In this document: positions 45,351 through 57,417 of the stretch, piece by piece
Layout of the letters: each line of letters begins with the position of its first letter
Position numbering within the stretch: position 1 is the first letter of the stretch
Origin: an uncultured Poribacteria bacterium
Lineage (GTDB): Bacteria > Poribacteria > WGA-4E > WGA-3G
Reading direction: 5' to 3'
NCBI GenBank assembly: GCA_951813565.1
Contig: OX638351.1
Span: 4,384,001-4,448,000, forward strand
Length of the DNA: 64,000 nt
Notes under the pieces: generated by a model
The model's input: the letters and a program-made list of their open reading frames with translations, nothing else
Databases searched by the model: none
Told to the model about the DNA's origin: nothing
Program-made: the position numbers and the translations under genes

Positions 45351-46550
45351 CTACCGCTCAATTTTATTTGCAGCGTAATGCATTATGTTTTCCATAAGTT
45401 CCTTGTTCATAGAAACCGTATATTGATTATCATTTCGAAGACTGGTAATGATGTAAAGCCCTTTTCCATATCGTCGTGCGCCGATAACGAGTTCGTCGCG
45501 TTCTTGGGTAGTCGCAAAAACTTCATCGCTCTTATCCCAACCTACCCAAGCGTCGTCAACATAAATTTTTCCTGACTGAATTTTATTGGGTGTTGAGAAA
45601 AGAGTAGTTTCTTTGTTGGTAACTTTAAAAAACCTATCTGGTGGACTTTCAACGCCTGTTAATTTGCCCTGTAACCATCCAACACTACAAGGTTTTTGCA
45701 TAGTACTGTCTTGTCCCGAAACGACAACAATACCACCATTTTTGACGAAGTTTTTAATTTCTTTCTCTGTTTTTTGAGAAAGGAGGTGGCGACCAAAACT
45801 TGAAATCTCTTCGTACCCGATCCATAACATATCGGCATCTTGTAAGTTCGGTAGCGTGCGTATTTTGGTAGCTTCATAAGCCAATTGGCGCTTTCCAATC
45901 TTTCTAATGTTTCGCAAAGCTTGGTATTCATACGTCATGGAGTTGGTATAAACATGCGTCTGCCCCCAAGTTGGAGAAGTGCTATTACCTGTCAAAACCA
46001 GTATTTTTAATGCGTCCTTGGTAGCGGTAACCCACATTTTGCCATCTAACATGTCGCGAACAGCTTTTTGAAAAGTTTTTGTTTTACCTTCAAACGTTCG
46101 GTTCATCATCGGATCAATGTGTGTAAAACTCCACCATGAACTGCCGCTTCTGCCTCGATATGCACGCATTTGAAACCATGTGTCATCAATAAAACACATA
46201 CTATCAATACCGTAATGGTCTCGATAAAAAACAATGATTGGCATGCCCTGTTTAAGTAGTCGTACCATCTTTTGTGGTGAGGTGCCTTGTTTATATTGTC
46301 CGGTTTGAAAATTCATTTTAATTTCTCGTAGATTACTTTTTCCCTTTACGTCTTCATTGACTTTAATAGTTGCTTGTAATCTCCGAGTGTTGACAGTTTT
46401 AACTTCACCAAAAACGATATTTGTGCAAGCATCAAGAACTTCACGAATTGTATATTCACGTTCAATAAACCCAAGCGCGGGTGATGAAGCAAGGAAACCG
46501 ATAAGAAATAGGGAAATAATCAATGTTGTTAGGACACGTGTAAAACGCAT
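45351..46550 (-). CDS. Secreted hypothetical protein (possible C-terminal GATase-like domain)
   Basis: Signal peptide MRFTRVL...ALG; 'FVKNGGIVVVSG'. Confidence 0.75.
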   Translation of the reverse strand: MRFTRVLTTLIISLFLIGFLASSPALGFIEREYTIREVLDACTNIVFGEVKTVNTRRLQATIKVNEDVKGKSNLREIKMNFQTGQYKQGTSPQKMVRLLKQGMPIIVFYRDHYGIDSMCFIDDTWFQMRAYRGRSGSSWWSFTHIDPMMNRTFEGKTKTFQKAVRDMLDGKMWVTATKDALKILVLTGNSTSPTWGQTHVYTNSMTYEYQALRNIRKIGKRQLAYEATKIRTLPNLQDADMLWIGYEEISSFGRHLLSQKTEKEIKNFVKNGGIVVVSGQDSTMQKPCSVGWLQGKLTGVESPPDRFFKVTNKETTLFSTPNKIQSGKIYVDDAWVGWDKSDEVFATTQERDELVIGARRYGKGLYIITSLRNDNQYTVSMNKELMENIMHYAANKIER

Positions 46551-46630
46551 TTTCAGACCTCCATCAGTAACAGGTATTTTATAAAAGTTTATCATATTTT
46601 ATGCAAATTGACAATGATTTTGTTAATTTG

Positions 46631-46878
46631 GGGTGTGTAAAGTTTTGTCACTAATCACCTTTAGAAATTTTAATTTGACAAACATACTTATTTGTGTTAA
46701 TATAATTATCACATAACAATAATTGGAGATGCCCATAGAACAAAGAGAGAAAATAAAAAAACTAAAAATCACGTCACATTCCTTGTACCACTTGACATTA
46801 GCACGTCACTAGGACGTGCAAAACGTCCTAATTACAACCTACAAATGTCCTACGGACAATGACAAAAACTTTACACCC
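46631..46878. mobile_element. MITE with ISKra4-like ends, upstream of the defence island
   Basis: Left end GGGTGTGTAAAGTTTTGTCA, right end TGACAAAAACTTTACACCC. Confidence 0.65.
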
Positions 46879-46936
46879 AAATAATACGACATTTTTTTGC
46901 CTGATGTGGTATAATTAAAGGAGGTGGAATATATTT

Positions 46937-48202
46937 ATGTGCAACAAACTTAATTACCTTGATCTCTTTGCTGGAGCTGGAGGACTTTCTGAAGGATTTA
47001 TCCGCGCTGGGTTTAATCCCATAGCACACGTTGAGATGGATCCAGCCGCTTGCTTTACGCTTAAGACCCGGATGGCATACCATTCGCTAAAAGAAAATGA
47101 TGATTTAGATCAATATGCCGATTATCTGAAAGGTGATATTAAAAGGAAAGAATTTTATAATTCGGTATCAGATACAGTGATCAATTCTGTTATTGACGCT
47201 GAGATTGGGGAGAAAACTCTGCCAGACATTTTCCACAAAATTGATAATTTATTGGGGAGTCAAAAAGTTGATTTGATTATCGGGGGACCACCTTGTCAGG
47301 CATATTCGGTTGTAGGACGAGCGCGTTCTCCGAATGGAATGAAGGGAGACAAACGGAATGATTTATATGTCTTCTATGCGGAATTTTTAGAAAAATACGA
47401 GCCTAAATATTTTGTGTTTGAAAATGTCCCTGGTCTGCTGTCTGCCACAGATGAAAAAGGTGAATCCTATTTAGATCTTATGCTAGATCTGTTCCACGAG
47501 TATAGGTATGAAACAAAACCCAAAACACTGTTAGCAAGTGATTATGGAGTTCCGCAAAACAGAAAAAGAGTATTCCTTGTTGGAAAGAGAGATTCAACCA
47601 TAGACATCTACCCTGAACCAGATAGATGTGCTTCAGATATTCTTGTAGAAGATATTCTCGCCGATTTACCTGCTCTCAAATCTGGTGAGGGTAATATAAA
47701 ATCCTGCAATCTAAATTCAGAGTATCATCCTTGGCTGCATGACGTAGGTATACGGAATAATACACTTCCGGTAACATTTCATCAAGCACGTCCCAACAAC
47801 GAACAAGATCTTGAGATTTACAAAATTGCAGTTATGCTTTGGGAAGAACAAAAGATACCTCTTAAGTATAATGAACTTCGTGACGAATTAAAAACGCACA
47901 AGAACAAGGAATCTTTTTTGAACAGATTCAAGGTTGTTGAAGCGGATTCTCCCTATTCACATACTGTAGTTGCTCACATTGCAATGGACGGTCATTATTA
48001 TATTCATCCAGATATTGAGCAGAATCGTTCTCTTACACCGAGAGAAGCGGCAAGGCTACAGACATTTCCGGATGACTATTACTTTGAAAGCCGTAATGGA
48101 AGAGCTTACCGGACCACTGCTTACCGTCAAATTGGGAATGCGGTTCCTGTGCTTCTTGCACAAAAAATTGCGGGAAAGTTAAAGGAGAATTGGGAATCAT
48201 GA
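46937..48202 (+). CDS. dcm: DNA (cytosine-5) methyltransferase
   Basis: 'DLFAGAGG', 'GGPPCQ', 'FENVPG', 'QNRKRV', 'REAARLQTFPD', 'QIGNAVP'. Confidence 0.96.
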   Translation: MCNKLNYLDLFAGAGGLSEGFIRAGFNPIAHVEMDPAACFTLKTRMAYHSLKENDDLDQYADYLKGDIKRKEFYNSVSDTVINSVIDAEIGEKTLPDIFHKIDNLLGSQKVDLIIGGPPCQAYSVVGRARSPNGMKGDKRNDLYVFYAEFLEKYEPKYFVFENVPGLLSATDEKGESYLDLMLDLFHEYRYETKPKTLLASDYGVPQNRKRVFLVGKRDSTIDIYPEPDRCASDILVEDILADLPALKSGEGNIKSCNLNSEYHPWLHDVGIRNNTLPVTFHQARPNNEQDLEIYKIAVMLWEEQKIPLKYNELRDELKTHKNKESFLNRFKVVEADSPYSHTVVAHIAMDGHYYIHPDIEQNRSLTPREAARLQTFPDDYYFESRNGRAYRTTAYRQIGNAVPVLLAQKIAGKLKENWES

Positions 48203-50358
48203 ACAACGACATAACCTATAAGATCAGACCTGCGGGACGGCATATTCTGACTATTGGTCGAGATCTCATTCAGGATAATTATGCGGCTGTTATTGAATTA
48301 GTAAAAAACGCTTATGATGCAGATTCTCCGTATGTCAACATAGAATTTAGAGCAGCTTCTAATCTTAGTAGATATACTATCATCATCTCTGATCATGGGC
48401 ACGGTATGTCCAGAAATGATGTCATAAACAAGTGGCTTGTTCCATCAACGCAAGATAAACGTGTAAATAATAGAAGCCTTTCAGGAAGAATCATGCAGGG
48501 AAGCAAAGGAGTAGGACGTTATGCGGCTTCTATTCTTGGTGACGATCTACTGCTTGAAACTGTGACCAATAATGGTGAAAAAACAACAGTTTATGTTAAA
48601 TGGTCTGATTTTGCGAAAGCGAAATACCTAAATGATGTGGATATATTAGTTGAAACAGTGGAGACATCTGAACCTACAAGTACTGTCATAACTATCAACG
48701 GAGATGTAGAGTTACTATCGGAATGGAATAAGGATCGATTTGAAAAACTTCGATTTGAACTGAAAAAATTGACATCCCCAATGAGTAATATTCTTTCTAA
48801 TGAAGATAGCGTTGATAAATTCAGTATCAGCTTGACAGTTGAGGGATTTCCCGGTGTGGAAAATGTCAATGAAACTATTGAGCCGTACCCACTTTTTGAA
48901 CTTTTTGACTACAAAATTTCAGGCACCGTAGATGCAAACGGTGAAGTAGTGCTGACGTACTCTTCACAGAAAGCTCGAAACACTACTGAGGAAAAAATCG
49001 CTTTCAATTTAGGGAAAAAAACTGGGTGCGGCAAACTTGATATTGATATTCGCGTGTTTGACCGTGAGAAGGAAGCTATCGCTGCTTTGACTGAACGAGG
49101 ACTCAAAGAGGAATCCGAAAGTCCTTTTGGAAAGCTTACAGCAAGACAACTTCTAAATTACTACAATGGGGTTGGTGTTTATCGGAATGGATTTCGCATT
49201 CGACCACTCGGCGATGCGGGTTACGATTGGTTAAAACTGAACGCAAGGCGTGTAAATAACCCTACCCTTCGGATTGGCAATAATCAAGTAATCGGTTTTG
49301 TCCAAATTCAGTCGGCGGATGAATCCGGTTTAATTGAAAAAAGTGCAAGGGATGGACTCAAGGAAAATGCAGCTTTCAATCGGCTTCAAGAAATTACAAA
49401 GGAAGTTATATCAGAACTTGAAACAAGACGTTTCAGATACAGAAAAGACGCGGGACTGAGTCGCACCAAATTCAAAATAGAGCAGAATCTACAAGGTCTT
49501 TTTTCGTATGATGACTTAAAACAAAATGTTAAGAATCGGCTTAGTAATAAAGCCATAAGTCAGACAACCACTGAAGAAATTATTGATCTTATTGATAAAG
49601 ATGCGCAAGAAAAAAATAAGGTAGCAGAGGAAGTTCGTCAAGCTGTTGCTGTTTATCAAGGACAAGCTACCTTGGGAAAAATCATCAATGTTATTCTACA
49701 TGAAGGCAGACACCCTCTGAACTACTTCCGAAACCGAATACCTTTTCTCAAACGTAGATATGAATTATATCAAAAATATCAGAATTCGGTAGACCTTGAA
49801 AAAATCATGGATATTGTGAATGGGATTGCTTATAATTCAGAATTATTGGGAAATCTTTTTAGTAGACTTGATCCTTTGGCGGCTGCTAGACGCTCACGAA
49901 GAAAATCTTTTAAATTGAAACAGACAATTGAAAAGTGTCTTTCTGTCTTTGAAAATGAAATGAATATTCACAATATATTTCTAGAAATAATAGGGCCTGA
50001 CGACTTCAAATTTTCAGGATGGTCCCAGGACCTCTACGCGATCTTCACTAATCTGGTTGATAATAGCATTTATTGGATCTGCGAGAAAAATGTTGCCGTG
50101 CGAAAGATTAAAATTCTACTCAAAATGAAGAATAATACCCTGGATTATATTGACTACCATGACACAGGTCCTGGGATTGAACCTGATCTAATTGAAAGCG
50201 AAGTTATCTTTGAACCACACTTTTCTACTAAACCTGATGGAATAGGGCTAGGATTAGCGATCGCAGGTGAAGCAGCGGAAAGAAATGGTTTTAAATTGAA
50301 AGCTATTGAATCTGAAGAAGGAGCCCATTTTATACTTCAACCAAAAATGGAGATTTAA
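48199..50358 (+). CDS. MORC/MutL-type GHKL ATPase fused to a histidine kinase
   Basis: N-terminal 'ELVKNAYDA', 'DHGHGM', 'GSKGVGR', S5-like 'YRNGFRI'; C-terminal H-box 'ILHEGRHPL', 'NLVDNS', 'DTGPGI', 'FSTK', 'GIGLGL'. ATGA overlap with dcm. Confidence 0.9.
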   Translation: MNNDITYKIRPAGRHILTIGRDLIQDNYAAVIELVKNAYDADSPYVNIEFRAASNLSRYTIIISDHGHGMSRNDVINKWLVPSTQDKRVNNRSLSGRIMQGSKGVGRYAASILGDDLLLETVTNNGEKTTVYVKWSDFAKAKYLNDVDILVETVETSEPTSTVITINGDVELLSEWNKDRFEKLRFELKKLTSPMSNILSNEDSVDKFSISLTVEGFPGVENVNETIEPYPLFELFDYKISGTVDANGEVVLTYSSQKARNTTEEKIAFNLGKKTGCGKLDIDIRVFDREKEAIAALTERGLKEESESPFGKLTARQLLNYYNGVGVYRNGFRIRPLGDAGYDWLKLNARRVNNPTLRIGNNQVIGFVQIQSADESGLIEKSARDGLKENAAFNRLQEITKEVISELETRRFRYRKDAGLSRTKFKIEQNLQGLFSYDDLKQNVKNRLSNKAISQTTTEEIIDLIDKDAQEKNKVAEEVRQAVAVYQGQATLGKIINVILHEGRHPLNYFRNRIPFLKRRYELYQKYQNSVDLEKIMDIVNGIAYNSELLGNLFSRLDPLAAARRSRRKSFKLKQTIEKCLSVFENEMNIHNIFLEIIGPDDFKFSGWSQDLYAIFTNLVDNSIYWICEKNVAVRKIKILLKMKNNTLDYIDYHDTGPGIEPDLIESEVIFEPHFSTKPDGIGLGLAIAGEAAERNGFKLKAIESEEGAHFILQPKMEI

Positions 50359-50360
50359 AG

Positions 50361-51416
50361 GTGAGCACATTAAGGTTACTTTTAGTAGAAGATTCAGAAC
50401 AAGAGCTTGAAATCCTTAGAGATATTTCTGAAGAATACATTCACGAGAAGAAGCGAAAAATAGATATAGTCGAATGTAAAACGTTGGAGGAAGCATTAAA
50501 CACATTAGATAATTCCTTTGATGGTGCAATTATTGACTTGAAACTTGCTGACCAAGGTGATGAAGGAAATAAGATTGTAAAAAAGATTGTAGAGTCTTTT
50601 TTTCGGATTCCAATTGCTATCCTTACAGCAATCCCAGGTAATTGGGATGAAAGCTTAAATGAAGAGATTATGCTTATGGATGTTTTCGTAAAAGGTGAAG
50701 TAGAATATGTTGAAATTTTAGACAGATTTTGGGAAATTTACAATACAGGGCTCACACGTATCATGGGGGGCAGAGGCAAAATTGAGATTGCTCTCAATAA
50801 GGTTTTCCTCAAAAATCTGAAGCCACAGATAAAGACATGGATATCTTATGGTGAAGAAAATTCTGAACGAACCGAAAGATCTCTCCTCCGTTACACCCTG
50901 AATCATTTATTTCAACTTCTTGAAGAAGATGGAGAAAGTTGTTTTGTGGAGGAATTTTATTTGTCCCCACCTGCCACAGATAAGATTACCACAGGCAGTA
51001 TTGTAAAAGAAAAGACTACCGATCAACCTTTTTTAGTTCTGAGTCCGGCGTGCGATCTTGTCATTAGAAAAAATGGTAAAAGCAACACAAATTTTATTCT
51101 TTTGGCTAGTATTGAAAGTATGGACGATGTGCTCAATGGTAAAAAGAGTAAAGGTAGCGTTAAGGAACTATGTACTAATAGGCGAGCATATTACCATTGG
51201 CTACCAGAAACTAAATTTTTTGATGGTGGAATCATAAATTTCAGGAAATTAATAACTTTCCAAAAAGATGTTTTTGACGAAAATTTTGGAAAACCTACTA
51301 TTCAAATATCTCCCTTCTTCATAAAGGATATTGTATCGCGCTTTTCTTCATACTATGCACGGCAAGGTCAACCCGAAATAGATAGTGAGGATTTTATTAC
51401 CCGCTACACGTCCTGA
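50361..51416 (+). CDS. Receiver-domain protein with an uncharacterised C-terminal domain
   Basis: 'LLLVED', 'IIDLKL' (phospho-Asp), 'LTA', 'FVKG'; C-terminal 'LSPACDL...RFSSYYARQGQP'. Confidence 0.85.
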   Translation: MSTLRLLLVEDSEQELEILRDISEEYIHEKKRKIDIVECKTLEEALNTLDNSFDGAIIDLKLADQGDEGNKIVKKIVESFFRIPIAILTAIPGNWDESLNEEIMLMDVFVKGEVEYVEILDRFWEIYNTGLTRIMGGRGKIEIALNKVFLKNLKPQIKTWISYGEENSERTERSLLRYTLNHLFQLLEEDGESCFVEEFYLSPPATDKITTGSIVKEKTTDQPFLVLSPACDLVIRKNGKSNTNFILLASIESMDDVLNGKKSKGSVKELCTNRRAYYHWLPETKFFDGGIINFRKLITFQKDVFDENFGKPTIQISPFFIKDIVSRFSSYYARQGQPEIDSEDFITRYTS

Positions 51417-51826
51417 ACCCTACGCGTACCAAAGGAACGCCCATGCCCACACTTGACTTCAAAGGCAAACAATTCATATACGCACACCACCTCACCGTCC
51501 CCTTCCGCACACTGGATATAGACGACGACAAATCCCTCACAAGCGAAATCCCTCCATCATTAGACGACAACTTTATCATTCACGGTGACAACCTACACGC
51601 CTTAAAAGCACTCCTCCCGAAATACGCTGGCAAAATCAAGTGTATCTATATTGACCCGCCGTATAACACTGGTAACGAAAATTGGGTTTACAACGACAAC
51701 GTCAACAGTCCGATGATGCAAACGTGGCTTGAGAAAAATAGCCCTATAGACATTGAAGATTTAGAACGGCACGATAAGTGGTTGTGTATGATGTGGCCTC
51801 GGTTACACCTATTGCGTGAGTTGTTA

Positions 51827-52979
51827 TACCATATTAATATGATTGTTCTTGCATTTATTTTTTGGATGTGTTATTGTGATCAGATGAAAAATAAAAAACA
51901 TGGGGTTTCCCCTCACTTTTCAGTAGAAGTTCTGAAACAAAGGTATCTTGAATGTGAATGTCCTATTGAACGGACGCACTGGCATATTATTTGGCTTCTT
52001 GCTGATACCACACATCCGCGAACACCTCGCGAAGTTGCTGAGATTGTAGGATGCACGCCGGACTGGGTTCGGAAGTTGCTCAAACGCTACAACGCTGAAG
52101 GCGAAGCAGCTATGCGAGACAAACGCAAAAACAATGGACGCAAGCGTATTTTGGATGAAACACAGCAAGCAGCCCTTGAAGCTGCACTTTCTTCGCCTCC
52201 TGCTGATGGCGGTCTGTGGACAGGTCCGAAGGTGGCTGCGTGGATATCCGAGACACTCAAGCGTCCTGTCAGTAATGTGTCAGGTTGGAAATATCTCAAG
52301 CGTCTCGGTTATACTTTACAAACACCTCGTCCTCAACATCAGTCAGCTGCAACACCAGATGAGCAGCAAGCATTAAAAAAAAACTTAGGGAGCGGGTAGC
52401 TGAGCTTGAAGGTCAGCACCCGGAGAAATCGGTAGAAGTCTGGGCAGAAGACGAGGCACGCGTGGGATTATTGCCGGTTCATCGGCGTGTCTGGGCGAAG
52501 CAAGGTGAAAGACCGACAGCCTCGGTGTGTCCGTCATATAAATGGCTTTATGGTTTCGGTTTTGTCCGTCCACAGACGGGTGAGACTTATTGGCTTCTGA
52601 TGCCGAGTGTGAGTGTTGAAGTGATGAACCTTGCGTTGGCAGAGTTTGCTCGGGATGTAAACCCGGAAGGCAAGAAACAGATAATCCTCTTATTAGATCG
52701 TGCCGGTTTTCACACGGGTAAGGATTTAGATGTCCCACAAGGTATTGAGTTATTTTTTTTACCGCCGTATACACCGGAACTTCAACCTGCCGAACGGCTA
52801 TGGCCTCTGTTGCGAGAGGTGGTTGCCAATAAAGTTTTTAGAACGCTATCAGACCTTGAAGAAGTGCTTGTGAAAAGGTGTCAGTGGTTCTCCAAAAACA
52901 GAAAGAAGGTGCAAGAACATGTCGGTTTTCAGTGGATTTGCAAAATGGAAAACACAATATGACTTACGTTAATTTGGTA
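51827..52979 (+). mobile_element. IS630-family insertion sequence (1153 bp)
   Basis: TIR TACCA[T/A]ATTAA; TTA duplicated at 51824-26 and 52980-82. Confidence 0.92.
51884..52962 (+). CDS. IS630 transposase (HTH ORF plus DDE ORF, -1 frameshift at A9 run 52375-52383)
   Basis: HTH 'EVAEIVGCTPDWVRK'; DDE 'WAEDEAR', 'LDRAGFH', 'LPPYTPELQPAE.LW'. Confidence 0.9.
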
Positions 52980-54289
52980 TTATCCGATGATGGCGTCATT
53001 TTTATCTCTATTGATGATAATGAGCAGCACCGTTTGCGGATGCTCATGGATGAGATTTTTGGAGTGAGTAACTTTGTTGCTAATATTGTGTGGCATCACA
53101 GAAAATCAAGTCAAAACGATATAGATGTTTCGCTTTCTCATAATCACATACTTTGCTATGCCCTTGAAAAGTCTATATTTTCTTTCAACGCTGGAGATGT
53201 TGATGAAAGTAAATTCTCGAATCCCGATAAAGACTCTCGTGGTCCGTGGGTGGCAGATCCAATGGACGCCCCTCACATCAGGAAAAATTTGACGTACGAA
53301 ATTATCAACCCCAACACTGGCAAAATCTATCTACCTCCAGCCGGTAGACATTGGAGATTTTCTAAAGATAAGTACGAAGCCGCACTGAAAGAAAAACGAA
53401 TTATCTTTGGAAAAAGAGGAACTTCCAAGCCACAATATAAAAGGTTTCTCAGCGAAGCGCGTGAAAAAGGAGTCAATATCTTCACAATATGGAGTGATGT
53501 AGGAACTGCTACCGATGGGACTAAAGAACTTATTAACATTTTTGGTCGTGGACAAACTTTTCCAACTCCAAAGCCAACAGATTTAATTGCAAAAATAATC
53601 AGAGTATCTACAGATAAAAACGACATTATCCTTGACTCATTCGCAGGCAGCGGCACTACTGCTCACGCTGTCCTTGCCCTCAACAAAGCGGATGGCGGCA
53701 ACCGAAAGTTTATCCTTGTTGAATGTGAAGACTATGCTGACAATATCACAGCCGAACGCGTCCGTCGCGTCATAAACGGCGTTGAAAATGCCAAAGATGA
53801 AAACTTGCAGAAAGGACTCGGTGGATCCTTCACCTATTGCACACTCGGTGAAACAATTGACACTGAGGGGATGCTCACAGGTGACTCACTTCCCACATAC
53901 CAAACCTTAGCGAACTATGTCGCTTATGCGGCTACCGGCAGTAAATTGGAGATCAAAGCAAAGCAGAAAAATTACTGCTTCGGTGAAACAAAGGATATCC
54001 GATTCTATCTCATCTATGAACCGACACTTGAATTTTTAGAGAGCAATGAGTCCGCTTTAGATGCGAAACGTGCTGAGCAGATAGCTGAGGAATGTAAAGC
54101 GGCAGGCAAAAAAGCCTACGTTTATGCGTCTCATAAGTTTATGAGTCAAAAAGAACTTACGCCTATGGGTATTACCTTCTGCCAACTCCCCTATAGCATC
54201 TATCAAATCACATAACACGTATTCTTGCCTTGAATTTTATTGTTTTTTGTCCTATAATTTAGTCAAGTGTTTACTGAAGGAGTACACAA

Positions 54290-54697
54290 ATGAAGAAGGT
54301 TTTACTCTTGGCTCTCTGTTTTCTTATCTCAACGACTTGTGCGTTTGCAGAACTCACACAATCCGATTTTGAGAAGATTCAATCAATTGTTGAAAAGACT
54401 GTTGAAAAATCTGAAAAACAGATTAAGGAATATATTGATCTCAAAATTGATGCCGTTAATGCAAGAATTGATGCCGTTAATACGAACATTGATACGAAAA
54501 TTGATGCCGTTAACACAAGAATTGATGCCGTTAATGAATCTGTTGGTCGTAATTTCTACCTAATTATAGCCACGTTCATTCTAATTGTGGTTGCTGTTGG
54601 CATTCCGCAGGTAATCATAGCAATACAAAGTAAGAAATATGATAAATTGGTAGACGATGTTGAGATGTTAAAACAGCAACGTATCGCAAGTCCGTGA
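54290..54697 (+). CDS. Small secreted/membrane coiled-coil protein with IDAVN repeats
   Basis: AGGAG RBS, signal peptide, four 'IDAVN', C-terminal TM helix. Confidence 0.8.
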   Translation: MKKVLLLALCFLISTTCAFAELTQSDFEKIQSIVEKTVEKSEKQIKEYIDLKIDAVNARIDAVNTNIDTKIDAVNTRIDAVNESVGRNFYLIIATFILIVVAVGIPQVIIAIQSKKYDKLVDDVEMLKQQRIASP

Positions 54698-54801: not shown

Positions 54802-57417
54802 ATGGAACTAAAAGAGTACCAACAACAAGCATTAGAGACTTTAGACCGCTACCTTGATGCACTGAAAGAGGCGTATCTGCAATTGGACAAAGTCGCCAAG
54901 ATTCTCTCATCAGATGAAGTCCCTGATAGTTTGAGAAATTATCCCTTTCAAGCATGGGAAAGTTTACGCAAAAAATCAGGGTTGCCGGGCGTACCAGACA
55001 AAAACGGTGAGAACCATATTCCAGAATATATTTCACGTGAGGCGGCCTCTGGCGAACTGATCCCGCATGTCTGCTTGAAAGTGCCAACAGGTGGTGGAAA
55101 GACGTTGTTAGGTGTAGGGGCGGTAAGGCGACTCAAAATCGGCACAGGATTTCTGCTCTGGATTGTGCCAACCAAAGCCATCTATTCACAAACACGAGAT
55201 GCATTTCGCAATCAAGAACATCCGTATCGACAGATTTTGGATCGCGCTTCTGGTGACCGTGTCAAGCTACTGGAAAAAGATGACAGATTTACAAAGCAAG
55301 ATGTTGAGAATCACCTCTGCGTAATGCTTTTGATGTTACCCTCCGCAAACCGAGAAAAAAACAAAGAATTTCTGAAAATATTTCGTGATAGTAGTGGTTA
55401 TGACTCCTTCTTCCCTATTGAAGACAATATTAGGAAACATCAAGCATTATCGGAGGAGCACCCAGACCTTGAAACTATAAAACTCGATGAACCAGGCCAG
55501 ATGCGTGGCATGTTCGCCGCAAATCCTGCAGATAGACTGATTAAGCAGAGCCTTATTAATGTGCTAAAATTGATACGACCGACGGTAATTTTAGACGAAG
55601 CGCACAAGGCTTACGGGAGCCAAAAAGTGGAAAATAATCGAGAGTTCGTAAAAGCAGTGAACCGCCTGAATCCTCGCTTTGTATTGGAGTTATCTGCTAC
55701 GCCGCAGCTCGGAATTAGCAACATCCTTGTCAATATCTCTGGCACAGCACTGAAAGAAGAGGAGATGATTAAAATCCCGATTCAACTCCGCAATTTTCCA
55801 AATTCCACCTGGAAATATACACTTGCTAAAGCAAAAGCAGAACGGGATAAACTGGAAGAAGCAGCAAAGCAATTTCAGCAAGCAGAAAATCGCTACATCC
55901 GTCCTATTGCAGTGATTCGTGTTGATCGTACCGGTAAAAAGCAGCGTGCCGGTGTTAAAGTGCACGCTCAAGATGCCCGCGACGAACTTATCAAGGTACT
56001 CGGTGTGCCAGAGGAACACATCAAGGTTAAATCTTCTGAACAGGATGAACTCGCTGGTGTGGATCTACTCAGTCCTTTCTGTTCTGTGCGCTACATCATC
56101 ACAAAAGATGCATTAAAGGAAGGATGGGATTGTCCGTTTGCCTACCAATTGGCACTGCTTGATAACACCACTGCACAGACCGCTATGACGCAGCTTATCG
56201 GCAGAGTCATGCGGCAACCGCATGCACGCGCAACGAATTGCTCGGAATTAGATACTTGTTATATCTACTGCTTCAATCAGAAAGTAGGAGATGCTGTTGA
56301 CAACGTCAAAAAAGGGTTAGAGGCGGAAGGGTTAACAGGGCTTGCGGAATACGTTGAAAGCATGGATGTGGAGCGTGAAAAGAAAAGTATTCAGCGCAGG
56401 AAGAAATACCGTGAGATAGATATTTTTCTGCCACAAGTAATGCACAAACATGGACGTAGTTGGGACATGCTCAATTATGAGCGTGACATTCTCAGTGCGA
56501 TTGATTGGCGTCAACTCGGAGCAGTGGAACCTGTAAATTTAGATGACCAAGAACTTTTACAAGAAATCCGCGCTACTATCCATTTGCAAGACCATGACGA
56601 ACCAGAAAAAATCATATTAGAAAATACATCGGAAAAATTGGAAATATCGTTTTTTGTTAGGCGTTTGAACGATGTTATTCCGAATCCTTGGCAAGCAGCG
56701 CGTATCGTTAAAGCCACCCTTCAAGCCTATCGGGAACAAGGCGATGATGAGGATAAGTTATTTACAAATCGGGTATATCTTTCCGAAGTCTTGAAAAACA
56801 AACTCCGTACACAGATAGATACTCTTGCAGAAACTATTTTTAGAGAGAAACTGGACGATAACAAAATTCGGTTTAGTCTTGAAACAGATGTCGCGTTGAA
56901 TTTTGAGTTGGAAAAAACGATTGAAGTTATTATCTCAAAAGACGCAAAACGTCTAACCCATTCAGATGCAAGTCCCGTGCAGCTCAACCTCTTTAACCCT
57001 GTGTATGAAGCAGAATTCAACAATTTGGAGAAAGATTTCGCGCTTTATCTGGATAAAAAAGATGCAATTCAGTGGTGGCATCGTATCGCCGCGAGACAAG
57101 GCTATTTTTTACAAGGTTGGCGGCGGGACCGTGTTTATCCTGACTTTATCGCTTGTGTGCAAGGAGACAAGAAGGGACAGCAACGTCTACTCATTTTTGA
57201 AACCAAGGGGCAACACCTTGAAGGCAACAGCGACACCACCTACAAACAAGAACTTATCAAGACATTAGAGTCAGCGTATAAAAACGCTACAGAATACGGG
57301 ACAATGGAAGCTGCCGGCCCTAATGACAAACCTATGTCTTTTCGCATGTTGCTTGAGGACACTTGGTGTGAGACTGTTAATGAGACGATAGATGACTACT
57401 CTGCATCGTCACAATAA
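54802..57417 (+). CDS. res: Type III restriction endonuclease Res subunit (SF2 helicase plus PD-(D/E)XK)
   Basis: 'LKEYQ', 'PTGGGKT', 'DEAH', 'SAT', 'EGWD', 'QLIGRVMR', 'PDF...ETKG'. Confidence 0.93.
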   Translation: MELKEYQQQALETLDRYLDALKEAYLQLDKVAKILSSDEVPDSLRNYPFQAWESLRKKSGLPGVPDKNGENHIPEYISREAASGELIPHVCLKVPTGGGKTLLGVGAVRRLKIGTGFLLWIVPTKAIYSQTRDAFRNQEHPYRQILDRASGDRVKLLEKDDRFTKQDVENHLCVMLLMLPSANREKNKEFLKIFRDSSGYDSFFPIEDNIRKHQALSEEHPDLETIKLDEPGQMRGMFAANPADRLIKQSLINVLKLIRPTVILDEAHKAYGSQKVENNREFVKAVNRLNPRFVLELSATPQLGISNILVNISGTALKEEEMIKIPIQLRNFPNSTWKYTLAKAKAERDKLEEAAKQFQQAENRYIRPIAVIRVDRTGKKQRAGVKVHAQDARDELIKVLGVPEEHIKVKSSEQDELAGVDLLSPFCSVRYIITKDALKEGWDCPFAYQLALLDNTTAQTAMTQLIGRVMRQPHARATNCSELDTCYIYCFNQKVGDAVDNVKKGLEAEGLTGLAEYVESMDVEREKKSIQRRKKYREIDIFLPQVMHKHGRSWDMLNYERDILSAIDWRQLGAVEPVNLDDQELLQEIRATIHLQDHDEPEKIILENTSEKLEISFFVRRLNDVIPNPWQAARIVKATLQAYREQGDDEDKLFTNRVYLSEVLKNKLRTQIDTLAETIFREKLDDNKIRFSLETDVALNFELEKTIEVIISKDAKRLTHSDASPVQLNLFNPVYEAEFNNLEKDFALYLDKKDAIQWWHRIAARQGYFLQGWRRDRVYPDFIACVQGDKKGQQRLLIFETKGQHLEGNSDTTYKQELIKTLESAYKNATEYGTMEAAGPNDKPMSFRMLLEDTWCETVNETIDDYSASSQ

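Follow-up and report, generated by a model that had tools for sequence, protein, structure and literature searches.

Does the receiver protein of a methyltransferase-kinase-receiver cassette act as a regulator, a nuclease or a toxin, and is the methyltransferase an obligatory part of the system? This question is raised by three genes in a 64,000-nucleotide stretch of DNA (the window) from an uncultured Poribacteria bacterium (GenBank assembly GCA_951813565.1, contig OX638351.1, positions 4,384,001 to 4,448,000 of the forward strand). A sequence-only reading had described the genes as a candidate signalling-controlled defence system lying next to a type III restriction-modification (R-M) locus. 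The cassette and the parts of its third gene are as follows.

46937..48202, + strand: C5 cytosine DNA methyltransferase gene (dcm), 421 aa, PF00145
48199..50358, + strand: GHL-ATPase/histidine-kinase fusion gene, 719 aa, PF13589 and PF02518
50361..51416, + strand: receiver-output gene (gene 3), GTG start, 351 aa
50361..50741, + strand: receiver domain of gene 3, residues 1-127, with phospho-acceptor D59
50742..50927, + strand: helical hairpin linker of gene 3, residues 128-189, the main predicted homodimer interface
50928..51416, + strand: output domain of gene 3, residues 190-351 (fold match ~205-336), predicted MazF/PemK/CcdB fold

The tight coupling and AT-richness noticed earlier are both correct: the first two genes share an ATGA overlap (48199-48202), the last two are separated by 2 bp (AG, 50359-60), and the GC content of the cassette is 37.9% versus 43.1% for the genome, a value reached by none of the 1211 non-overlapping 4480-bp genome tiles. 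The three reading frames are all open and keep all their catalytic residues. Contigs from two runs, which may represent the source sample, cover positions 46500-51853 and 46500-51362 and show no differences. The closest relatives with titled records are metagenome-assembled genomes of Candidatus Poribacteria (65-76% identity). The triad is real and widespread.

Predicted output domain and phosphorelay

Fold searches with the full-length protein encoded by gene 3 returned receiver domains only, and the output domain was folded alone. The resulting model (pLDDT 94.7, 137-sequence alignment) was compared with 48,161 representative chains, 11 of which scored Z >= 8, all of them from the MazF, Kid or CcdB family. 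The best match was Staphylococcus aureus MazF (Z 11.1, root mean square deviation 2.8, 104 aligned residues); CcdB reached Z 10.2, with residues 21-146 of the model aligned to CcdB 1-101. The type III toxins CptN, AbiQ and ToxN followed at ranks 12-15 (Z 5.4-7.9), ahead of the first unrelated chain at Z 4.5. Foldseek pointed to the same family (best E 4.5e-4), as did a second structure search and a search of the viral library, which was led by PemK-like rows. The output domain is thereby predicted to adopt a MazF/PemK/CcdB fold, sharing with MazF, PemK, Kid, CcdB, ToxN, AbiQ and CptN a barrel and a C-terminal helix over ~100 aligned residues (Z 9-11.4). In proteins of the ToxN type, the fold is monomeric and its active site is a different one. 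The earlier statement that the C-terminal part of gene 3 is not a helix-turn-helix domain agrees with the predicted model and the structure searches. Among the three effector functions suggested at that time (cryptic nuclease, abortive-infection toxin or regulator), the toxin gains most because of this fold.

The domain has its own set of invariant residues. G212, P229, C231, R334, Q335, G336 and P338 are present in 128/128 receivers, D232 in 126 and H279 in 119 of them. The invariant Cys-Asp pair lies in the first short helix and the RQGQP motif at the end of the last helix, which correspond to regions of the MazF antitoxin-binding groove, as far as described in the available part of PMC10893535, and to the C-terminus of CcdB. 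At the sequence level, residues 190-351 matched nothing in Pfam (E <= 1), NCBIfam, PADLOC or PHROGs, with neither a PF02452 hit nor significant profile similarity to MazF/PemK; the whole receiver protein has no PADLOC match, and in a PDB sequence search with the receiver profile, the best 60 of 132 matches cover the receiver part only. The output domain is thus predicted to have the MazF fold, yet it does not belong to the MazF RNase family. The ESM Atlas returned unnamed clusters only at 0.89-0.92 and one weak lead (0.75), a cluster with PF19192 in 13% of its members. A search for standalone output domains (<= 707 aa) yielded full-length receivers exclusively among the best 120 of 1130 matches. 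Elsewhere in the same genome there are eight ordinary PemK/MazF-family matches (L094-L101), two of them with internal stops.

The receiver half is well defined: residues 2-138 match the receiver fold (Z 15.6), the acidic pair and other signature residues noted earlier (E10, D11, D59, T89 and K111) are conserved, and D59 is found in 128/128 receivers. The window protein reads TAIP in place of the TGTP motif after receiver strand 4. Two linker helices (139-166 and 168-188) follow. The homodimer prediction scored 0.72 versus 0.00 for the best control, a mark reached by 20/30 solved pairs and 1/23 single chains; the runs share at least 92% of contacts with pLDDT of at least 83. The confident interface consists of the receiver flank and the helical hairpin 128-188, and dimer residues outside this list are uncertain.

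Six loci encode 221-225-aa variants, in which a related receiver is joined to a different 100-aa domain (L189:5589-6266, L192:8220-8897, L193:7808-8485, L194:8807-9484, L197:7861-8538 and L198:9054-9719), in one case in the order dcm-kinase-receiver-mod (L193); four stretches related to this domain occur in the genome studied here. A HicB-like identity, suggested by eye, received no support from HHalign and Pfam and was dropped.

As claimed earlier, the kinase carries two separate ATP-binding modules (PF13589, residues 29-141; PF02518, residues 610-717); the S5-like region that had been attached to the first could not be confirmed. Residues 142-480 have no Pfam match above the cut-off, and the 60 PDB profile matches listed are kinase cores only. 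A profile of 16 relatives aligns with solved histidine kinases over residues 477-712, placing H501 on the H-box histidine (ZraS, E 1.1e-35). E33, N37, D65, G67, G69, G104, G106 and H501 are present in 91/91 aligned kinases; at position 161 of the GHL head, Gly is found in at least 95% of the 91 relatives and Ser in the window copy. The protein lacks hydrophobic segments (the highest Kyte-Doolittle mean over 19 residues is 1.15), in line with the absence of a transmembrane sensor proposed before.

The assignment of gene 1 to the C5-methylases also stands (PF00145, E 3.1e-62; FAGAGG, GPPCQ and ENVPG motifs). This Dcm belongs to one conserved subfamily, whose residues 271-300 and 331-390 average 72-81% identity among 39 relatives. 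It matches the PADLOC DrmMII model PDLC02649 (E 3.9e-162), and membership in class II DISARM was considered and rejected: the methylase alone gives this match, and the five other scanned proteins have no Drm model match in PADLOC. A comparison of the kinase and receiver genes of 37 Dcm-bearing and 20 Dcm-less loci revealed no avoided motif particular to the Dcm set. The cassette does not have the type II R-M layout of a methylase with a cognate endonuclease. The earlier claim that no cognate restriction enzyme is present holds for recurring genes, with no nuclease among the ORF clusters found beside this Dcm family in at least two loci (singletons were outside the scan); REase_II models of PADLOC match the GHL head only (residues 17-127), and EcoRII-C occurs in three loci, all without this Dcm subfamily. 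One 571-aa protein (P0162) joins the N-terminal part of the subfamily to the receiver linker and output domain and is probably a deletion fusion.

Unit of conservation and genomic context

Is the triad the evolutionary unit, as had been assumed? The receiver family comprises 1490 proteins (90% clustering, E <= 0.001), and its C-terminal part forms 653 clusters at 50%. Two sets of loci were examined: the best 80 of 306 metagenome loci, reduced to 76 distinct ones after four identical loci were dropped, and 28 of the 30 full-length loci in the phylum, all but those of the own genome and of one short contig. Metagenome denominators refer to loci with enough flank, and related loci are not independent. 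The kinase core adjoins the receiver in 62/63 metagenome and 28/28 phylum loci, and the GHL head is present in 53/53 metagenome loci. Within the phylum, the receiver profile matches 45/176 genomes (full-length in 30), and the Dcm subfamily is carried by 17/176. Dcm lies upstream in 12/27 phylum loci (10 intact, 2 remnants) and Vsr is found in 0/27. Seventeen phylum loci have no intact dcm, and in 15 of these every key residue of the kinase and the receiver is retained, the other two being decayed; decayed copies among the relatives are L167, L176, L188 and L191. A search of five Dcm-less genomes for C5-methylases of any kind gave unrelated ones in three; the other two (G053 and G031, one contig each, 96% and 93% complete) lack a PF00145 match and retain an intact pair. 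The output domain evolves with dN/dS of 0.09-0.29 (21 of 78 Dcm-less pairs, dS < 1.2), averaged over a history in which dcm may have been present. Therefore, the triad is not obligatory and, in contrast to the sequence-only reading, not the unit: the kinase-receiver pair is the fixed core and Dcm is dispensable. Because the pair persists intact without it, this methylase is not needed for self-protection.

The cassette is mobile, with a low GC content, a patchy spread and copies on plasmids. Kinase and receiver queries both match 46 plasmid records; 42 of the receiver records are conjugative and 41 are from Campylobacter and near-clonal. On such conjugative Campylobacter plasmids, the pair is accompanied by a convergent dcm (L008:1-4454). 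There was no match to the cassette in 50,697 phage records, and four loci lie in viral contigs. Ten plasmid records with distant kinases were also fetched. On plasmids, the same kinase design is combined with short receivers followed by an MBL hydrolase or by an HNH protein and an N6-methylase. Longer plasmid receivers carry the output signature described here (15-protein search: L208, E 2e-28; L206, 5.5e-7; L207, 1e-4), and in one more (L201) it is recognised by motif only. The signature reaches distant receivers of 388-630 aa, and the fold may therefore be the missing effector for much of the R-M-linked kinase-receiver class.

The setting of the pair in the phylum points to R-M loci. Type I or type III genes were found in 19/22 long phylum loci versus 120/5409 (2.2%) of the 18-kb windows of the own genome; the pair is placed between the hsdS and hsdR genes of a type I operon or directly before a type III methyltransferase gene (mod). 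SEFIR or HEC-01 genes often stand beside it in type I operons. Outside the phylum this link is less strong: type I, III, Mza or EcoRII genes accompany 11/19 long metagenome loci. What stands of the earlier reading is a conserved, mobile and soluble phosphorelay with ties to methylation and restriction loci; the phylum pair lies mostly in or beside type I/III loci, with neighbours matching SEFIR, HEC-01 and Mza models.

Several individual loci deserve mention. TIR/SEFIR-domain genes or C-terminal fragments of them lie between hsdS and the kinase in L161-L163, L166, L167, L171, L182 and L191, and one scanned gene of this kind matches PADLOC bSEFIR with E 1.6e-80. In L044 (9598-14750), a Mza-like cluster (MzaB, C and D models) is located directly downstream of dcm-kinase-receiver-vsr, and AIPR/MzaE is found in related loci. 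L191 (8663-10333) encodes a receiver fused to an AAA_21 ATPase, 5' of a DUF4276 gene and with a split kinase, which looks like the deletion product of a receiver and a HEC-01-like neighbour. In L177 and L187, identity to the window is 79-90% for Dcm and the GHL half but 53-62% for the kinase core and the receiver, a mosaic that suggests recombination inside the kinase gene. In other loci (L168), it is the receiver that comes closest, at 74%.

Known systems and the mode of action

How far is such a module already known? The layout itself is not new: according to the part of PMC8011034 available to us, two-component-like elements of a sister family, HEF_HK (PF19191) and Response_reg_2 (PF19192), were published in 2021 with the same layout, a proposed regulatory role, no named output domain and no test. 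Those elements and the present cassette both combine a soluble HATPase_c_3 + H-box + HATPase_c kinase with an adjacent receiver gene, usually with an upstream C5-methylase and often with Vsr directly downstream, in an R-M neighbourhood. This context recurs across the present family, in which one constant Dcm subfamily lies directly upstream in 38/50 and Vsr directly downstream in 45/64 metagenome loci; the window copy has dcm but not vsr. The present receiver has 351 aa and a recognisable PF00072-type domain, versus a 600-aa query in the same portion of PMC8011034. PF19191 and PF19192 matched none of the window proteins (E <= 0.1), the 128 receivers or the 21 plasmid proteins in a comparison run with no known member as a control, and a PF19192 search of 151 genomes found nothing but is uninformative, as no control matched.

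Two systems with demonstrated anti-phage activity are instructive, as described in the accessible text of their preprints. Ambrosia (AbrRABCD; bioRxiv 10.1101/2025.09.30.679545) likewise unites a methylase, a HATPase/kinase and a receiver in one cluster; its phospho-Asp is required for defence, methylation gives the phage no protection, and its authors read the kinase-receiver pair as a transcription switch. Besides the kinase, its five genes encode an N6-adenine methylase, an XRE regulator, a receiver-wHTH protein and a separate HNH nuclease, whereas the present cassette has a C5-methylase, a predicted MazF/CcdB-fold output and no XRE or HNH ORF. In Detocs (DtcABC; bioRxiv 10.1101/2023.01.24.525353), phosphate is transferred from a histidine kinase to a receiver joined directly to an exchangeable effector, and the present cassette may follow the same logic; phospho-Asp is needed to block phages and abortive infection was shown. 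Its kinase DtcA has a TPR sensor, DtcB is a buffer receiver, PNP is the main effector, and that preprint's accessible text describes no GHL head or methylase link; here, the GHL head takes the place of TPR, and abortive infection would be expected only by analogy. The paraMORC GHKL ATPases of R-M systems share the N-terminal GHL ATPase and the link to C5-methylases and Vsr, and carry nuclease, TIR or other tails (PMC2292703); these families, in the portion consulted, have no kinase core, and the words "receiver" and "two-component" are absent from the main text. The literature, covered mostly through open-access sources, contained no receiver-MazF/PemK fusion and no test of this cassette, and the consulted parts of PMC12839542, PMC12137116 and 10.64898/2026.09.30.754977 do not describe the module. 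As far as these searches reach, the predicted MazF/CcdB-fold output and the Dcm independence are new, and the layout is not.

The reading we prefer, with a probability of roughly 0.45, is that kinase and receiver together form a toxin module gated by phosphorylation, a back-up for methylation-based defence. It builds on the computed features: the kinase is soluble and has H501 and an intact GHL head, the receiver has D59, the output domain combines the predicted MazF/CcdB fold with an invariant polar surface of its own, and the pair moves among dcm(-vsr) cassettes and R-M loci of type I or type III. The GHL head would act as an ATP-driven clamp that monitors a host methyltransferase, an R-M complex or how the DNA is methylated. 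A disturbance in the course of phage infection, for example by an anti-restriction protein, would trigger autophosphorylation of H501 and transfer to D59; phosphorylation may then rearrange the linker-held dimer and free the MazF/CcdB-fold domain, which would arrest the cell, acting either as an RNase whose active site has been rewired or as a protein poison like CcdB. The kinase would stand in for the antitoxin, and Dcm would be the usual partner watched rather than a self-mark shielding from the effector. A broader version is put forward more tentatively: widespread defence modules might consist of an antitoxin-less MazF/CcdB-fold toxin whose active site has been rebuilt (Cys231-Asp232, His279, RQGQP) and which is fired by His-to-Asp phosphotransfer from a MutL/MORC-type clamp guarding the adjacent methylase or R-M complex (C5, type I, type III). 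R-M-linked kinase-receiver cassettes have been known since 2021 with no output assigned, and the fold and invariant residues allow direct tests. If the toxin reading is true, phosphorylation replaces an antitoxin as the control of a MazF/CcdB fold, this fold has acquired new chemistry, and there is a first handle on sensing by prokaryotic MORC-like clamps.

A number of observations weigh against this reading. The link to MazF is a structural one, drawn from the predicted model, and an HHalign comparison with 31 PemK-family proteins was not significant (probability 0.09, E 0.58). Catalysis by MazF needs an Arg and a Thr, according to the available part of PMC10893535; these are present in 26/31 and 31/31 PemK-family proteins, respectively, and are not kept here, where position 222 is variable and position 252 is Glu in 69, Asp in 25 and Gln in 12 of 128 receivers (the mapping to the start of strand 2 and the end of strand 3 follows strand register and the non-significant alignment and is approximate). 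A canonical MazF dimer is not what the prediction gives: the confident interface does not list strand 290-301, most of the last helix or the invariant residues. The domain further differs from MazF-fold toxins in its low identity (8-17%), its fusion to a receiver and the absence of an antitoxin gene. No standalone DtcB-like buffer receiver was found among the recurring neighbour ORF clusters. The constant Dcm subfamily upstream, together with Vsr downstream, in most metagenome loci points to a tie more specific than to any methylase. With the query set used, 8/19 long metagenome loci and 3/22 phylum loci contained no R-M gene, and two of the 19 phylum R-M loci are mod remnants only. In the window copy itself, the GHL head carries G161S and the neighbouring R-M locus is broken.

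The missing catalytic residues and the non-canonical predicted dimer would suit a pair that sets the level or activity of the adjacent methylase or R-M proteins, with the MazF-fold domain as a catalytically dead RNA- or protein-binding output acting post-transcriptionally. The retention of the pair across many R-M contexts and its tolerance of Dcm loss fit such a regulator as well, and regulatory roles are proposed for related pairs in the consulted parts of PMC8011034 and of the Ambrosia preprint, which favours a transcription switch. We nevertheless consider a regulator rather unlikely: the structure search gave the output domain no DNA-binding fold, dcm-kinase-receiver-vsr cassettes have no recurring separate effector gene and often just a methylase to regulate, and the invariant Cys-Asp, His and Arg set would resemble an active site more than a scaffold. 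The same gene order, in which no restriction enzyme recurs and the pair occupies the place of the R gene, could alternatively reflect an atypical restriction system, with Dcm marking self, the GHL clamp reading unmethylated incoming sites and the phosphorylated receiver attacking DNA or recruiting a nuclease. The target-recognition region of Dcm is conserved, and Dcm distances follow the GHL half best (Spearman 0.74, 38 triads), though adjacency alone predicts that. This explanation appears improbable, as intact pairs in genomes without a C5-methylase match (2/5 tested) should self-react, dcm is lost or a remnant in 17 phylum loci with the pair intact in 15, no nuclease fold matched the output domain, and no Dcm-specific motif avoidance was found.

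Another possibility, compatible with the toxin reading, is an addiction module that stabilises itself or its mobile element. Loss of the element or dilution of the methylase would activate the kinase or abolish its phosphatase activity, and segregants would be killed by the MazF-fold domain. MazF, Kid and CcdB folds are those of classic addiction toxins, 42/46 plasmid records with the receiver are conjugative (with 41 records from one genus), and the low GC content and patchy spread agree with it. We regard addiction as very improbable, given that those 41 records are near-clonal, most other loci lie among defence genes and dcm has been lost repeatedly with the pair intact.

The adjacent type III locus and the state of the window copy

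Another question is whether the copy in the window is functional. The features surrounding the cassette are as follows.

46675-46703 and 46886-46915, + strand: two sigma-70-like promoter matches 5' of dcm, 10/12 each, consensus match only
51443..51823, + strand: 5' part of the type III methyltransferase gene (mod), PADLOC MTase_III, residues 1-133, E 7.1e-70
~51824..52982, + strand: IS630-family insertion sequence in mod, NF033545 on both ORFs
52983..54215, + strand: 3' part of mod, PADLOC MTase_III, E 1.5e-109
54802..57417, + strand: type III restriction subunit gene (res), context and not part of the cassette, 871 aa, open frame, PADLOC REase_III, E 1.6e-232

A type III R-M locus indeed adjoins the cassette downstream, as had been noted, but the splitting of mod by IS630 had been overlooked; the adjacent R-M locus is therefore broken in this genome, and a role of the window copy as a regulator of this type III system is rejected. 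Seven further near-full copies of the IS630 element are present in the genome (98.8-100% identity), and loose contig ends occur at its borders (51820-51824 and 52982-52983).

These data could mean that the family is functional and the window copy inactive or idle. Such a state would agree with the G161S replacement, the TAIP motif of the receiver, the broken mod, the absence of Vsr from the own genome and the existence of decayed relatives. We consider an idle copy unlikely: the three frames are open with all catalytic residues kept, the contigs of the two runs (possibly the source sample) show no difference, Vsr is absent from all 27 phylum loci, so its absence is normal here, and a second full-length type III mod-res pair is located elsewhere in the genome (G000:C1:4777429-4781535; 54% and 42% identical to that of the window).

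Five sigma-70-like sites were found versus 2.1 +/- 1.4 in shuffles, a weak excess. Between mod and res, a 135-aa ORF (54290-54697), with weak Pfam rows below the cut-off, has a hydrophobic N-terminal part, a coiled-coil and a hydrophobic C-terminal part.

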